DNA of 64,000 nt from a phage: the NCBI GenBank assembly GCA_017864995.1, contig GCA_017864995.1_4097.1. One strand, 5' to 3'. The notes under the pieces are model-generated. The model was not told the DNA's origin. It did not search any database and was given only the letters and a program-made list of their open reading frames with translations. This document shows positions 35,531 through 44,790 of this stretch, one piece after another. A program made the translations under genes and the position numbers. Numbering within the stretch: position 1 is the stretch's first letter; each line of letters opens with the position of its first letter.

Positions 35531-35869
35531 ATGGAACAACATTTTGAATTAATTAATAAGGTATCATTTTATGTAGTATCGTTAATTTGGGTGTATTACA
35601 TGTTTTGTTACATTATTGCATTCTTCCGATACACAACCTTGTATCAACGCATATACTACGATGCACCCATTTCATTTATGATGTTCTGTGCATGTACGTG
35701 GGGGATAATTGAAGCACTGGTATGTGGATATAGTACTGACGAATTAAATCTCGTATCGGGGTTGACATTACTAACAATTGCCATTATGATAGCTACTGTT
35801 CCGATATTTTTGCTCTTTAAACTGCTTCATCGTATTGATGAGTGGCGTGATAAAATCCCTGAAAAGTAA
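35531..35869 (+). CDS. small polytopic membrane protein, LR[DN]K[IM]P family, copy 1
   Basis: 3 TM-like segments; C-terminus RIDEWRDKIPEK. Confidence 0.55.
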   Translation: MEQHFELINKVSFYVVSLIWVYYMFCYIIAFFRYTTLYQRIYYDAPISFMMFCACTWGIIEALVCGYSTDELNLVSGLTLLTIAIMIATVPIFLLFKLLHRIDEWRDKIPEK

Positions 35870-35872
35870 GGA

Positions 35873-36220
35873 TTGATAATGATTTTCTACACTAATGCTT
35901 TTGCTTATGCTATTGCATCAATCTACATTGTGTACTTCTTATTTGGTGGAGTACTGTACTTCTTTAAGTACAAAACATTGTTTAACCGAATGTATCCAAA
36001 TCATCCAATTGTTGTAGTACTTTTGATTATTTCTGTTGCTCACATCATTGTAGAAACAATAATGGGTATTAGTGCAGTACATTACAGTCTAGGTACTATT
36101 GTGATTATTACTATGATCATCGCATACATTTTAGTAATGGGTTTTGGTTTATTTGGAAATGTAGCAATGAAATTGTATAATCGAATCAAAACATTACGTG
36201 ATAATCTACCGGAGCGTTGA
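35873..36220 (+). CDS. small polytopic membrane protein, same family, copy 2
   Basis: C-terminus RIKTLRDNLPER. Confidence 0.55.
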   Translation: MIMIFYTNAFAYAIASIYIVYFLFGGVLYFFKYKTLFNRMYPNHPIVVVLLIISVAHIIVETIMGISAVHYSLGTIVIITMIIAYILVMGFGLFGNVAMKLYNRIKTLRDNLPER

Positions 36221-36221
36221 G

Positions 36222-36566
36222 ATGTATAATTTAAATTTAATATCATATATCATAACAACACTGTTTACTTTCTATGCCTTTGTTGGTATACTCCTACTGT
36301 ACTTTAAATTTTATAAACTTTTTGATCGTTTTTATCCGTCATTAGAACATGAATTCTTATTAGTGATGTACATATGTCTAACGTTTATGTCTACATTTTT
36401 CACTGCATCTGATGGTATCATTGGTATTAAAGCTGAAGAACCAAATGGGAGTACGCTTGTTGCCTTTATTCTGGTAGGATTTTTCAGTACTTATATTACC
36501 TTTATTTCAGGATGTACCGTGATTGATTATCTTGTGAAATTACGAGATAAAATGCCAAATCGATAG
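36222..36566 (+). CDS. small polytopic membrane protein, same family, copy 3
   Basis: C-terminus LVKLRDKMPNR; start at ATG 36222. Confidence 0.55.
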   Translation: MYNLNLISYIITTLFTFYAFVGILLLYFKFYKLFDRFYPSLEHEFLLVMYICLTFMSTFFTASDGIIGIKAEEPNGSTLVAFILVGFFSTYITFISGCTVIDYLVKLRDKMPNR

Positions 36567-36575
36567 GGGATTGCT

Positions 36576-36833
36576 ATGTTTGCATTGCGTAATAAAAATA
36601 CAAAAGAGATTCTATGTATCTCAATAGTATGGGATTGTGCAGGAAGTGAAATGATTCTCGAAGAAGGTTCAGGTGATTGTGTTTATGTTGTTCAGGATCG
36701 TCGCGAACTGGAATCATTACTTGACGAATTTAATGCTGGTGGAAATCCTAAAAGTACTCAATTCCCTGAGATCAGGAATCCAGCACCACCAGGCTCTTAT
36801 GAAATTCTACAACTGTGGGAGATGGATAAGTAA
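36576..36833 (+). CDS. hypothetical protein
   Basis: ORF track. Confidence 0.5.
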   Translation: MFALRNKNTKEILCISIVWDCAGSEMILEEGSGDCVYVVQDRRELESLLDEFNAGGNPKSTQFPEIRNPAPPGSYEILQLWEMDK

Positions 36834-37213
36834 TGCGTCAAATGCACAAAGTAACCGAGCTAAACAAGCGTCTGATTAAACAATCAATGTTTGAGGATAA
36901 AGAGTCTTACTATAACTTCAAACGTGCTGTAGAGGCTGCTATCCACATTCAGAAGCTTAAAGATAGTGGATGTATTATTCTCGAAAATGGTTCTGACGTT
37001 GTTACTGATGACTTCAGTGTAGCGTTTGATGTTTCACCTGATGGTTCGCTATCAATGCCACGCTTAGGGACTGGTGACATGACTGTGTGGGTAGGTTTCA
37101 CTATGGGGAATGTACCAGGCACGGTGTATGTAGATGATGCTGAGTTGAAAGAAAGCTTCAAAAACTTATCGCATCTTGAACCACAATACGCACATGAAAT
37201 GAATTTATTTTGA
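36833..37213 (+). CDS. hypothetical protein
   Basis: TAATG overlap. Confidence 0.5.
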   Translation: MRQMHKVTELNKRLIKQSMFEDKESYYNFKRAVEAAIHIQKLKDSGCIILENGSDVVTDDFSVAFDVSPDGSLSMPRLGTGDMTVWVGFTMGNVPGTVYVDDAELKESFKNLSHLEPQYAHEMNLF

Positions 37214-37214
37214 G

Positions 37215-42689: not shown

Positions 42690-43036
42690 TGTTTGAATCT
42701 TATCTTGAGTTGTTAAAGAGTAGTTCTGTTGCACATTCAATTGCAGGGATTATTCTAACAGGTTATGTAACATTTTGGGTAGTTATGTTTCTAGGATGGT
42801 ATTTTAAACGACAATTCTATAAGCGTAATGGTGAAGATTTTATGAATTCTTTCATTAATCAATCGTTGTTTGCATCAACATTGATAGCATGTATTGTAGC
42901 AACACTCACAGGAAAGGTACTGCCAGCATTCTCCGCAGTTTACGGTACATTGGGTATGATATGTGTAGTTTTTTACTTGACCATTAAACTTTGTTGTGTT
43001 ATGATTGAACTTCGAAACAAGATACCGGAGGAATGA
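42689..43036 (+). CDS. small polytopic membrane protein, same family, copy 5
   Basis: C-terminus ELRNKIPEE; TAATG overlap. Confidence 0.55.
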   Translation: MFESYLELLKSSSVAHSIAGIILTGYVTFWVVMFLGWYFKRQFYKRNGEDFMNSFINQSLFASTLIACIVATLTGKVLPAFSAVYGTLGMICVVFYLTIKLCCVMIELRNKIPEE

Positions 43037-43371
43037 TGGAATATTTTTTACACTTAATGCCGTGGTATATGAAAGTTAGTACTATGTACTATATTCTTAG
43101 TGCTGGATTCTACTTTCTGATGTGGTTCTTCAAACGACCAATTTCAGTATTCATCTCTGATAACATGCTGCAATTAAAATTACACGCATGGTTTGGTATG
43201 GCGATGTTCATGCCTATTATTCACTACTCAATGATTAGTAGAGGGTTCCGTTCCAATGGTGAACCAATTATATTAGTATTCTATTGGGGTTCAACTATTG
43301 CATATGTAAGTTTGTTGTTGTTCCCAGTCGTTCATAAATTACGTGCTAAAGTTCCTGATGCGAGGTACTAA
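43033..43371 (+). CDS. small polytopic membrane protein, same family, copy 6
   Basis: C-terminus KLRAKVPDARY; ATGA overlap. Confidence 0.55.
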   Translation: MMEYFLHLMPWYMKVSTMYYILSAGFYFLMWFFKRPISVFISDNMLQLKLHAWFGMAMFMPIIHYSMISRGFRSNGEPIILVFYWGSTIAYVSLLLFPVVHKLRAKVPDARY

Positions 43372-43685
43372 TGGATATCGTAACATTGATTTACACGCTT
43401 TATTCATTCTATTTTATTATGTGTTGGGTTGGATTTTTATTTGTACTGAAGATGTTTGATTATGTTGAAAAACAGATAAAAGAATTTTGTATTCCTTTTA
43501 TTGGGTCAACCATTATTAGTATTACTTGCTTGTATTATTTGATATGTGATCCACCTGTTAATACAGCAATGATTGACTTCATGTTATTACCAACAACTGT
43601 TATTTTTTTATGTAGTCTGATGCCACCGATTAGCCGTGGACTAACTGAATTTAGACGCAATCAAAAGCGTAAACGAGGGATGTGA
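43371..43685 (+). CDS. small polytopic membrane protein, same family, copy 7
   Basis: basic C-terminus FRRNQKRKRGM; TAATG overlap. Confidence 0.5.
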   Translation: MDIVTLIYTLYSFYFIMCWVGFLFVLKMFDYVEKQIKEFCIPFIGSTIISITCLYYLICDPPVNTAMIDFMLLPTTVIFLCSLMPPISRGLTEFRRNQKRKRGM

Positions 43686-44053
43686 TGGAAATTGCACTTA
43701 TTATATTAACTTCTATGTTGTTTATTAGTACAATTGTTATTATTGGCAAGTTCTTCTGTGTATCCTTCTTGGAAACCGTATACGATGAAATTGCTGATGA
43801 TTATGAATTACATGCGGGATTTTTTACTACGTATTGGATTAGTTTATTACTACTTATCACTGTATGGATTTTACATATATTCAAATGGGGTATGGTAGAT
43901 GGTGATCCAGTACTGGCAATTATCTGTGTAGTGTTTGGTCTACTCGGTGGTGCTGTCCATAATCTGATGGTAATTTGGCAAACCGTACAATATGTATTAG
44001 TTCCACATTTTCAGAGAATGCACCAAAGCATCAAATACCGCAAACGAGGATAA
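43682..44053 (+). CDS. small polytopic membrane protein, same family, copy 8
   Basis: C-terminus QSIKYRKRG; ATGA overlap. Confidence 0.5.
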   Translation: MMEIALIILTSMLFISTIVIIGKFFCVSFLETVYDEIADDYELHAGFFTTYWISLLLLITVWILHIFKWGMVDGDPVLAIICVVFGLLGGAVHNLMVIWQTVQYVLVPHFQRMHQSIKYRKRG

Positions 44054-44054
44054 C

Positions 44055-44417
44055 ATGAATAATATTGAATTATCTTTTATTGGTCAATTAATGGTAATGG
44101 CGTATACATTTATCTTCTCACTGAATGCATTCGTGTGCATTGGGAAGTACTTCCATAAGCGACCATTATCAAATATATATGATGTAATACAAAGGAGATA
44201 TAGTCCAGCATATACTGTGTTGAGTACAGCATTCAATTTTGGTTTTATTCTAATGCTGGTTGCATTATTAACATCGAGTTCGAATTTTATAACATTTGGT
44301 ATTATGGTATGTTCACTAACACTGTGTGTGGTTATTCTCTGTGCATCCGTTGAGTTGCTGGCGTGGATGTATCATAAGATTTCCGAAATCCATGAGCGTT
44401 TAGGCACGAGGGACTAA
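44055..44417 (+). CDS. small polytopic membrane protein, same family, copy 9
   Basis: C-terminus HERLGTRD. Confidence 0.5.
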   Translation: MNNIELSFIGQLMVMAYTFIFSLNAFVCIGKYFHKRPLSNIYDVIQRRYSPAYTVLSTAFNFGFILMLVALLTSSSNFITFGIMVCSLTLCVVILCASVELLAWMYHKISEIHERLGTRD

Positions 44418-44418
44418 A

Positions 44419-44790
44419 ATGAGTTATCGTGAAATATTTTCAATCATTACTATTATTGTGTTTAGTTTAGGTTCTTTGATTTGGTTATTGTATTACTTCT
44501 GTGTAACCCCAGTATATAATATGCTAAATTCAGTAAAATCTGACGTTGGTATTGTTTCTTTTATTATCTTCATGGCATATTATATGCTAAGTATCACAGG
44601 TTTGGTTTTGGTTGTTATCTTTGACCTTGGGCCGAATCAAGATGGTATGGAGATGTGGGAATTGATAACGATGTTTGCATGTATGATACCTGCATTTGGT
44701 GTATGTGCTGGTGTATTTTATGGGTTGTGTAAAGGTGTAAACTACTTAAAAAATATCCACAATACTATTCGTAAAAAACGTATGTTGTAA
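44419..44790 (+). CDS. small polytopic membrane protein, same family, copy 10
   Basis: C-terminus NTIRKKRML. Confidence 0.5.
   Translation: MSYREIFSIITIIVFSLGSLIWLLYYFCVTPVYNMLNSVKSDVGIVSFIIFMAYYMLSITGLVLVVIFDLGPNQDGMEMWELITMFACMIPAFGVCAGVFYGLCKGVNYLKNIHNTIRKKRML

Follow-up and report, generated by a model that had tools for sequence, protein, structure and literature searches.

Why should a phage devote ten genes, packed into two tandem arrays, to small membrane proteins that share a common plan and almost no detectable pairwise similarity? The question is raised by a 64,000-nucleotide stretch of phage DNA (contig GCA_017864995.1_4097.1 of assembly GCA_017864995.1; we refer to the whole stretch as the window), which belongs to an Asteriusvirus, a jumbo coliphage of the 121Q/RaK2-like group ('RaK2-like' jumbo myoviruses, ~350 kb). 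Over a 9.5-kb interval of the window, identity was 98% to the Escherichia phages fEgEco12, EC.P1 and Ecwhy_1, and ~84–91% to 121Q, phAPEC6 and PBECO4. An original prediction made from the window had pointed out the ten genes, and all ten open reading frames (ORFs) were recovered at the coordinates it gave. They form an A array (A1–A3, 35531–36566) and a B array (B1–B7, 42351–44790) of tightly packed genes for proteins of 104–123 amino acids, with unrelated genes lying between the arrays (36567–42350). The individual members, with the subtypes to which we assign them below, are as follows.

A1, 35531–35869, plus strand: type 1, 112 amino acids, three transmembrane (TM) segments, C-terminus WRDKIPEK; phrog_19285 (6.5e-49); phmmer match between A1 and A2 of ~5e-8
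A2, 35879–36220, plus strand: type 1, 113 amino acids, C-terminus LRDNLPER; supported by the ORF list, PHROG, hydropathy and phmmer
A3, 36222–36566, plus strand: type 1, 114 amino acids, C-terminus LRDKMPNR; supported by the ORF list, PHROG, hydropathy and phmmer
B1, 42351–42689, plus strand: type 1, 112 amino acids, LWYFKKK after the first TM segment (TM1), C-terminus GRAKIRGDF; phrog_19454
B2, 42689–43036, plus strand: type 1, 115 amino acids, GWYFKR after TM1, C-terminus LRNKIPEE; phrog_19046
B3, 43033–43371, plus strand: type 1, 112 amino acids, MWFFKRP after TM1, C-terminus LRAKVPDARY; phrog_27396
B4, 43371–43685, plus strand: type 2, 104 amino acids, tail RRNQKRKRGM; phrog_33258
B5, 43685–44053, plus strand: type 2, 122 amino acids, IGKFFCV after TM1, tail HQSIKYRKRG; phrog_26405
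B6, 44055–44417, plus strand: type 2, 120 amino acids, GKYFHKRPLS
B7, 44419–44790, plus strand: type 2, 123 amino acids, tail HNTIRKKRML; phrog_27618

The lengths listed for A1, A2 and A3 follow from starts chosen by their upstream ribosome-binding sites, which made ATG 35879 (preceded by TAAGGA) rather than TTG 35873 the most likely start of A2, and ATG 36222 (preceded by GGAG) rather than GTG 36198 that of A3; B5 probably starts at ATG 43685, with GTG 43682 as the alternative. Start and stop codons, which had been described as overlapping, do so at four junctions (TAATG at B1/B2 and B3/B4, ATGA at B2/B3, TGATG at B4/B5), and the remaining junctions have spacers of 1 nucleotide (B5/B6, B6/B7 and A2/A3) or 9 nucleotides (A1/A2). 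In most members the Shine-Dalgarno sequence of the next gene is embedded in the last codons (GGAGGA-ATG, GAGGTACTAATG, CGAGGGATGTGATG and CGAGGATAACATG). Translational coupling, also part of the original prediction, would have to be read from these overlaps; the packing is real, yet it is no special evidence for coupling, because gene overlaps are common throughout these gene-dense phage genomes.

Common descent and membrane topology

Are the ten proteins related by descent, or do they merely share the composition of small membrane proteins? Among the ten, blastp and phmmer detected only the pairs A1–A2 and A2–A3, and the PHROG matches were spread over seven families of unknown function with a few weak cross-matches. 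Because pairwise similarity was almost nil, profile comparison was needed. We clustered the small membrane ORFs of the window and of seven related loci into position-specific orthologous groups, a procedure that yielded zero matches to reversed decoys, and compared the group profiles (90–117 columns) using hhalign. Within the first half of the resulting network, the A group was linked to B1 at 90%, to B2 at 84% and to B3 at 73%, and B2 to B3 at 94.5%; within the second, B5 was linked to B4 at 59%, to B6 at 91% and to B7 at 88%, and B4 to the group that we call G2 at 78%. Groups of the GAP32 type bridged the two halves, such that the network connected all ten proteins. In the corresponding controls, reversed decoys mostly scored below 2% (14.7% at the highest) and an unrelated 83-amino-acid membrane protein scored below 0.5%. 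Deep profiles built from 33 type 1 and 20 type 2 sequences aligned to each other over 99 columns with a probability of 93.5% (E value 2.3e-7), as compared with 7.1% for a reversed decoy and at most 1.3% for eight other small membrane ORFs of the window. Links this far above decoy and control level show a single superfamily with two subtypes, whose ten members here are true paralogues rather than proteins alike in composition. The claim of paralogy made at the outset is borne out by the A–B1, B2–B3, B5–B6 and B5–B7 links (88–94.5%) and by that between the two types. The family arose by old tandem duplication.

The subtypes are distinguished by short motifs near the predicted membrane boundary. 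In type 1 (A1–A3 and B1–B3), TM1 is followed immediately by L-W-[YF]-F-K, and R-x-[KN]-[IL]-P lies close to the C-terminus; in type 2 (B4–B7), G-[KF]-[FY]-F comes after TM1, and the protein ends in a His or Arg followed by a Lys/Arg-rich tail. The GKYFHKRPLS sequence of B6 is similar to WFFKRPIS in the type 1 protein B3. Defined by a length of 100–130 amino acids, three hydrophobic segments, positive-inside charges, a juxtamembrane Phe motif ([WY][YF]FK or GK[FY]F) and an Arg or His ~7–12 residues from the C-terminus, the superfamily takes in all ten proteins, B3 weakly. The C-terminal LRxK[IM]P signature to which attention had originally been drawn occurs in five of the ten and is kept throughout the type 1 homologues; B1 carries a variant of it, and B4–B7 lack it. 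We rejected the idea that this motif is a by-product of the embedded Shine-Dalgarno sequences, because distant homologues keep it and so do A1 and A3, in which the stop codon precedes the ribosome-binding site. We also tested further small TM ORFs from the window (26121, 26422, 27203, 29894, 31919, 38061, 16221 and 16655) for membership and rejected them.

Conservation across the paralogues was limited to the two short motifs after TM1 and TM3. The juxtamembrane Phe that follows TM1 (F39 in B2 numbering) was invariant in three alignments, and its counterpart F24 (B5 numbering) was invariant in one alignment and nearly so in another. R109 was nearly invariant in type 1, with His or Arg at the equivalent position of type 2. 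Column entropy was lowest at B2 residues 36–40 and 109–113, and both stretches lie at the cytoplasmic face of the membrane. Between paralogues, the TM segments and loops varied greatly; the loops, which could not be aligned from one paralogue to another, were conserved within orthologue groups.

Hydropathy supports membrane insertion, weakly in the case of B3: a Kyte-Doolittle scan with a 19-residue window found three peaks of at least 1.4 in nine of the ten proteins, and B3 had the weakest profile of the ten (1.3, 1.3 and 1.9 with a 17-residue window) and could be aligned with B2 over its full length. Across 65 family members, the mean number of Lys plus Arg residues was 0.35 in the N-terminus, 3.4 in loop 1, 0.55 in loop 2 and 4.2 in the C-terminal tail, and the count for the inside segments (loop 1 plus tail) exceeded that for the outside segments in 65 of 65. 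This positive-inside pattern implies three-pass inner-membrane proteins with a periplasmic N-terminus and a cytoplasmic C-terminus (N-out/C-in). An AlphaFold2 model of B2 (predicted local distance difference test score, pLDDT, 83) placed TM1 at residues 13–38, TM2 at 55–74 and TM3 at 88–110, with a short cytoplasmic helix at 42–52, and a model of B5 (pLDDT 68) contained helices at 2–23, 27–39, 42–68 and 75–121; the two models agreed on the order of elements. The depositors of the GAP32 homologues had likewise annotated three TM domains, using TMHMM and Phobius. The initial description of the proteins as polytopic with a basic tail, which we place in the cytoplasm, thus stands on hydropathy, on the charge pattern of all 65 members and on the modelled helices of B2 and B5.

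Distribution, selection and predicted transcription

The B array begins 67 bp downstream of an ATPase gene that turned out to mark the position of the family in related genomes.

NrdC.10-like P-loop/AAA ATPase, 41513–42283, plus strand: 256 amino acids, conserved upstream neighbour of the B array

This protein is 38% identical to T6 NrdC.10, belongs to phrog_1250 (unknown function), has weak matches to Pfam AAA/STAND families and is conserved in more than 1,300 T4-like and jumbo phage genomes; our search for a solved relative found none. In every RaK2-like genome examined, an array of three-TM proteins began ~70–130 nucleotides from the ATPase or its small soluble neighbour (retrieval of loci with the ATPase as query returned 121Q and RaK2 only). 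The ATPase is also found in T6 and in the PA5oct-like Ettore, both of which lack an array. The account given in the original prediction, correct in its paralogy, had missed this conserved site as well as the split into two subtypes. It had also proposed a comparison of array copy number across related phages, which showed that the number varies from 4 to 11:

Members after the ATPase: this window, 7; 121Q, 8; phAPEC6, 7; RaK2, 8; JNE01, 8
Members after the ATPase: Munch, 4; fENko-Kae01, 4; GAP32, 6; Serratia BF, 5; XbC2, 7
Members after the ATPase: Hallingskeid, 10–11; EJP2, 6; metagenomic contig L009, at least 3

The order of type 1 followed by type 2 members was conserved in Asteriusvirus, RaK2, JNE01 and Hallingskeid, and Munch and fENko-Kae01 have four members of type 2 and a single, distant one of type 1. 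B5 was the most widely conserved position. Duplications specific to single lineages affected B1 in 121Q-type phages (an insertion of ~340 bp), B4 in JNE01, and RaK2, which has a B2-like pair. In 121Q itself, the B4 orthologue (genes 228/229, at 10413–10728 of the 121Q locus) has a +1 frameshift in a T-run, which makes it either a pseudogene or a homopolymer sequencing error. Asteriusvirus phages carry one of two ATPase alleles, 96–100% or ~59% identical to that of the window, which do not travel with the array alleles: in WPEC3, an array 98.4% identical to ours lies beside an ATPase only 59% identical, with the break falling in the intergenic spacer (42284–42350).

Two further observations concern the ATPase and its surroundings. 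A conserved soluble protein of ~255–265 amino acids is encoded in mid-array in GAP32 (7479–8243), Serratia BF (7133–7933) and XbC2 (8402–9184; all locus positions). We considered these GAP32_524-like genes within the GAP32, BF and XbC2 arrays as possible paralogues of the ATPase and rejected that assignment. The extra N-terminal domain of T6 NrdC.10, considered as a possible membrane anchor, is soluble, which ruled it out.

Beyond these loci, profile searches of 5.8 billion sequences returned 23 type 1 and 12 type 2 matches, and a search of 1.84 billion representative proteins returned 34 full-length homologues, nearly all matched over their whole length. All matches were small (56–123 amino acids) and lacked a Pfam domain, and every named or long-contig source, together with both contigs that we checked, was a RaK2-like phage. 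The family is thus lineage-restricted, with orthologues across at least five genera of RaK2-like jumbo phages.

Comparison with 121Q indicated that the array genes evolve quickly under purifying selection. Protein identity to 121Q was 63–94% for the array genes and ~90–97% for most of their neighbours, and the ratio of nonsynonymous to synonymous substitution rates (dN/dS) was 0.11–0.43. When the proteins were divided into compartments, dN/dS was 0.10 in the N-terminus, 0.10 in loop 1, 0.17 in loop 2, 0.31 in the TM segments and 0.27 in the tail, and the comparison with phAPEC6 was similar. The loops, which are among the segments that differ between paralogues, are those most constrained within an orthologue, a pattern that fits specialised, non-redundant members.

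When might the arrays be transcribed? A 33-nucleotide composite element, GGGTTGACTTCGGTCRGCCCTTTTTGCTATAAT, occurs in three exact copies (34760–34792, 39384–39416 and 41452–41484), as compared with zero occurrences expected. It consists of a terminator-like GC hairpin with a −35 sequence (TTGACT) in its stem, followed by a T-run and then a −10 sequence (TATAAT). As a combined stop/restart signal, it would end one early transcription unit and begin the next. With the sigma-70-type promoters placed at 34763, 41455 and 42293, the signals that bear on the arrays are these:

34760–34792, plus strand: composite terminator and sigma-70-type promoter (TTGACT-18-TATAAT), heading the unit with A1–A3; 11/12 in the promoter scan
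41452–41484, plus strand: composite terminator and sigma-70-type promoter, preceding the ATPase and the B array
42293–42321, plus strand: weaker promoter-like site (TTGACT-17-TACTAT) in the spacer between the ATPase and B1; 9/12, consensus match only
44797–44823, no strand assigned: palindromic hairpin with a 12-bp stem, terminator-like on both strands, closing the B array and a convergent RCC1-like gene

The T4-type late motif TATAAATA was depleted in the window (two copies as compared with 12 expected), and neither array had a copy upstream. Both copies are intergenic, one (31286–31293) upstream of the ORF at 31326–31709 and the other (32528–32535) upstream of that at 32557–34068, which suggests that the motif is reserved in the window for use as a late promoter. 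In the related phage CBB, RpoD-like promoters are reported to be concentrated in the corresponding region, where short ORFs have been proposed to serve early host takeover; structural genes are instead preceded by an ATAAATA motif, and the phage encodes a gp55-like sigma factor (PMC5259590). From these motifs we infer that the arrays are probably transcribed early, by the host RNA polymerase. The phAPEC6 orthologues (gp012c–gp017c) are absent from the published table of the phAPEC6 virion proteome.

Possible functions of the arrays

Taken together, what could a lineage-restricted repertoire of this kind do? We tentatively favour, by analogy with known exclusion proteins and as a reading that falls short of probable, an exclusion- or immunity-like repertoire of early membrane-embedded binders that protects the membrane of the infected cell. 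The proteins would be made early by host RNA polymerase and inserted into the host inner membrane, where they would work as a set of binders or inhibitors embedded in the membrane, each specialised in its own way. Every paralogue would use its particular helices and loops to recognise a different membrane target, candidates being host inner-membrane proteins needed for DNA entry by superinfecting phages, or membrane-damaging effectors, and the net effect would be to keep the infected-cell membrane closed and intact through the long jumbo-phage cycle. Early expression is suggested by the sigma-70 promoters at the array units, by the absence of TATAAATA upstream of them and by the parallel in CBB; non-redundancy, by the position-specific orthologues across genera and their dN/dS; and the absence of a fixed complex, by the spread in array size (4–11 members) and the lineage-specific duplications. 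We also counted in its favour the swap of the ATPase allele independently of the array in WPEC3, and the absence of the phAPEC6 orthologues from the virion table, which speaks against a place in the virion.

Several points weigh against this interpretation. An arms-race signature was found in none of the compartments, all of which had dN/dS below 0.45. The early timing is predicted from promoter motifs. Family and fold searches found no homology to a characterised exclusion or immunity protein, and a possible Imm-like gene already lies elsewhere in the window (29894–30130). The interface motifs, being aromatic and basic, could be largely topogenic rather than functional, and a multi-subunit complex would also explain why gene order is conserved and packing tight.

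A complex of this sort is the main rival explanation, although we consider it doubtful. The paralogues would be subunits of one hetero-oligomeric inner-membrane complex, perhaps docked to or driven by the NrdC.10-like ATPase through their cytoplasmic motifs, and the complex might be a membrane anchor, a translocon or an assembly platform. The constant adjacency of array and ATPase in the RaK2-like genomes examined, the order of types kept in Asteriusvirus, RaK2, JNE01 and Hallingskeid, and the fact that the residues conserved family-wide all face the cytoplasm are what such a complex would lead one to expect; the start/stop codon overlaps and Shine-Dalgarno sequences embedded in the preceding gene also favour it, although overlapping genes are the norm in these genomes. 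Its composition, however, would have to tolerate wide variation, from the four type 2 and one distant type 1 members of Munch and fENko-Kae01 to the 10–11 members of Hallingskeid, and the A copies lie 5.8 kb away in a separate transcription unit. Moreover, the ATPase alleles recombine independently of the array alleles, and T4-like and PA5oct-like phages keep the ATPase without the array.

There is a bolder form of the repertoire that we favour, which we regard as unlikely: the arrays would be an intramembrane 'immunity' repertoire in which each member neutralises one membrane-permeabilising threat by helix–helix binding. The threats could include TM effectors of abortive infection, pore-forming bacteriocins, toxins of contact-dependent inhibition (CDI) or type VI secretion systems (T6SS), and the holins or ejection channels that rival phages bring. 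If true, this reading would define a new multi-specific class of anti-defence and anti-competitor proteins typical of long-cycle jumbo phages.

Alternatively, the proteins might be viroporin-like channels or modulators of membrane potential that serve host takeover, their oligomers leaking ions or altering transport. Several members have polar or ionisable residues inside TM2 and TM3, with an Asp, Glu or His recurring near the periplasmic end of TM2, and a Gly-rich TM3, such as that of B7 with its GxxxGxxxG, suggests helix packing. The weak Foldseek matches were to channel TM domains, yet their E values exceeded 5 and are non-significant. We found no conserved pore-lining motif, and conservation lies at the cytoplasmic interface rather than within the membrane. 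Channel activity also gives no reason for ten divergent copies, which leaves this explanation distinctly unlikely.

Of the functions suggested in the original prediction (superinfection exclusion or immunity, holins or antiholins, channel subunits), our evidence speaks against the second. We regard as highly improbable the possibility that the proteins are holins, antiholins or lysis-timing proteins of class I architecture. Their size, three TM segments, N-out/C-in orientation and basic tail do fit the class I description, RaK2-like endolysins have an N-terminal TM domain, and no holin has been assigned in CBB (PMC5259590). The promoters, however, are of the early sigma-70 type with no T4-type late motif upstream, and the neighbours are the ATPase, denV, endonucleases and RCC1-like genes, with no endolysin or spanin nearby. 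None of the proteins matched a Pfam-A holin family at an E value of 1 or below or a PHROG of the lysis category, and in fEgEco12 a holin is annotated elsewhere and none of the array genes is so labelled. No Met-Lys-Met dual start was found, the N-termini are neutral or acidic, and the two Met residues that open B3 and B5 are not separated by a basic one; nor does ten paralogues under purifying selection resemble any known lysis cassette. The least credible alternative, that the ORFs are non-functional or chance hydrophobic frames in AT-rich DNA, draws on the lack of known domain matches, the very fast divergence and the frameshifted B4 of 121Q. The conservation data refute it: orthologues across at least five genera keep their frames intact and their motifs conserved, dN/dS is 0.1–0.4, and 34 full-length homologues, all of 56–123 amino acids, were found among 1.84 billion representatives.

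Therapeutic use of RaK2-like jumbo phages is under development against E. coli, Klebsiella, Salmonella, Erwinia and other hosts, yet no function is known for more than 80% of their genes. Our results bring seven or more 'hypothetical' families of the databases together as one superfamily with 5–13 genes per phage. If the favoured exclusion or immunity repertoire is real, it would explain how a slow, large phage protects the membrane of its host cell, and it would bear on the design of cocktails, in which phages could interfere with each other. If instead the proteins form a complex with the ATPase, they would provide the first functional handle on an ATPase found in so many T4-like and jumbo phages. 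The finding is a well-defined lead, not the discovery of a mechanism.

Neighbouring genes and comparison with known systems

Outside the arrays, the window has other genes of note. Between 26121 and 35232, small membrane genes (26121, 26422, 27203, 29894 and 31919) alternate with genes for small signal-peptide proteins (26827, 27583, 29599, 32179, 34140 and 34819), all of which have an 'E.Y.F' core and a Cys behind the signal peptide; a relationship could be detected between 26827 and 27583 alone (phmmer ~1e-3; phrog_27330). This region may be a second envelope-directed gene set. The region between the arrays includes a 484-amino-acid Cys-rich repeat ORF (39989–41443) with a weak CapR-domain match, whose counterpart in related phages is annotated as endonuclease or homing endonuclease, and a 137-amino-acid HNH-like ORF (38977–39390). 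Both are likely mobile endonucleases, and their presence or absence probably explains the 73–83% coverage of the 9.5-kb interval in phages that are otherwise 97–99% identical. An RCC1-repeat ('DNA condensation') gene on the minus strand (44828–45952) is convergent with the B array, the hairpin at 44797–44823 being common to both; related phages have long tandem arrays of RCC1-like paralogues at this site, and one such protein has been reported in the phAPEC6 virion. The window as a whole is AT-rich (34–36% GC), its GC skew reverses near 46 kb, at the switch in gene orientation, and its AT skew is lowest (−0.14) in the 42–44 kb bin, as expected from T-rich hydrophobic codons.

How do the array proteins compare with what is already catalogued? 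Scans of the ten against Pfam, NCBIfam and PADLOC gave zero matches above threshold, the sole PADLOC match being that of B6 to a generic '2TM effector' model (E value 0.068). With the B2 model as query, Foldseek found nothing in the PDB below an E value of 5, and the sole significant match in BFVD was to the protein's own orthologue, with the rest (including membrane proteins of CBB and PBECO4) at E values above 0.7. PHROGs 19285, 19454, 19046, 27396, 33258, 26405 and 27618 contain the same proteins or their orthologues (E values 1e-46 to 1e-60), as do phrog 16874 ('membrane protein') and the 'membrane protein' annotations of GAP32, CBB and BF. What PHROGs presents as seven or more unrelated-looking families of unknown function is, in our analysis, one superfamily. 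The genes are thus already deposited as hypothetical or membrane proteins, and what the present analysis adds is their unification, the motifs and topology, the linkage to the ATPase and the map of copy number. In the literature that we searched we found no paper or database unifying the family, defining its motifs and topology, noting its linkage to the ATPase or mapping its copy number, no description of the family, no Asteriusvirus transcriptomics and no function for nrdC.10.

Among characterised membrane proteins, the anchors of Complex II (FrdC, SdhC and SdhD) gave neither a score above the curated cut-off nor a strong fold match. Class I holins, typified by lambda S105, have ~105 amino acids, three TM segments, an N-out/C-in orientation and a charged cytoplasmic C-terminal tail. 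The array proteins are like them in each of these respects and differ in their multi-copy state and early promoter context. The E1-type immunity proteins of pore-forming colicins and the membrane immunity proteins of CDI and T6SS ionophoric toxins are also small (~100–115 amino acids) and have three TM segments; they act by intramembrane helix–helix binding and often come in several specificities. Unlike the phage proteins, however, they have the opposite orientation (N-in), and they are bacterially encoded and unrelated to phages. The array proteins had no match to these families in Pfam or NCBIfam (the best was B1 to Sip4, E value 0.6), and such immunity proteins are a possible mechanistic analogue for a multi-specific repertoire.

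The remaining comparison is with T4 Imm (PF14373) and other inner-membrane exclusion proteins. None of the ten array proteins matched PF14373. The only match in the window was that of a 78-amino-acid membrane ORF (29894–30130; E value 0.014, 15.7 bits as compared with a cut-off of 27.9), which scored about the same as the gene annotated 'superinfection immunity protein' in Erwinia phage Hallingskeid (634–909 of its locus; phrog_1039, 1.8e-7); this ORF, which stands apart from the family of ten, may be a T4 Imm-like gene. What the array proteins share with T4 Imm and its like is that they are small, polytopic and, as predicted here, early, and that they lie in a T4-related early region. T4 Imm is in these respects their nearest functional analogue, with the difference that it is a single gene, whereas the window has ten paralogues.

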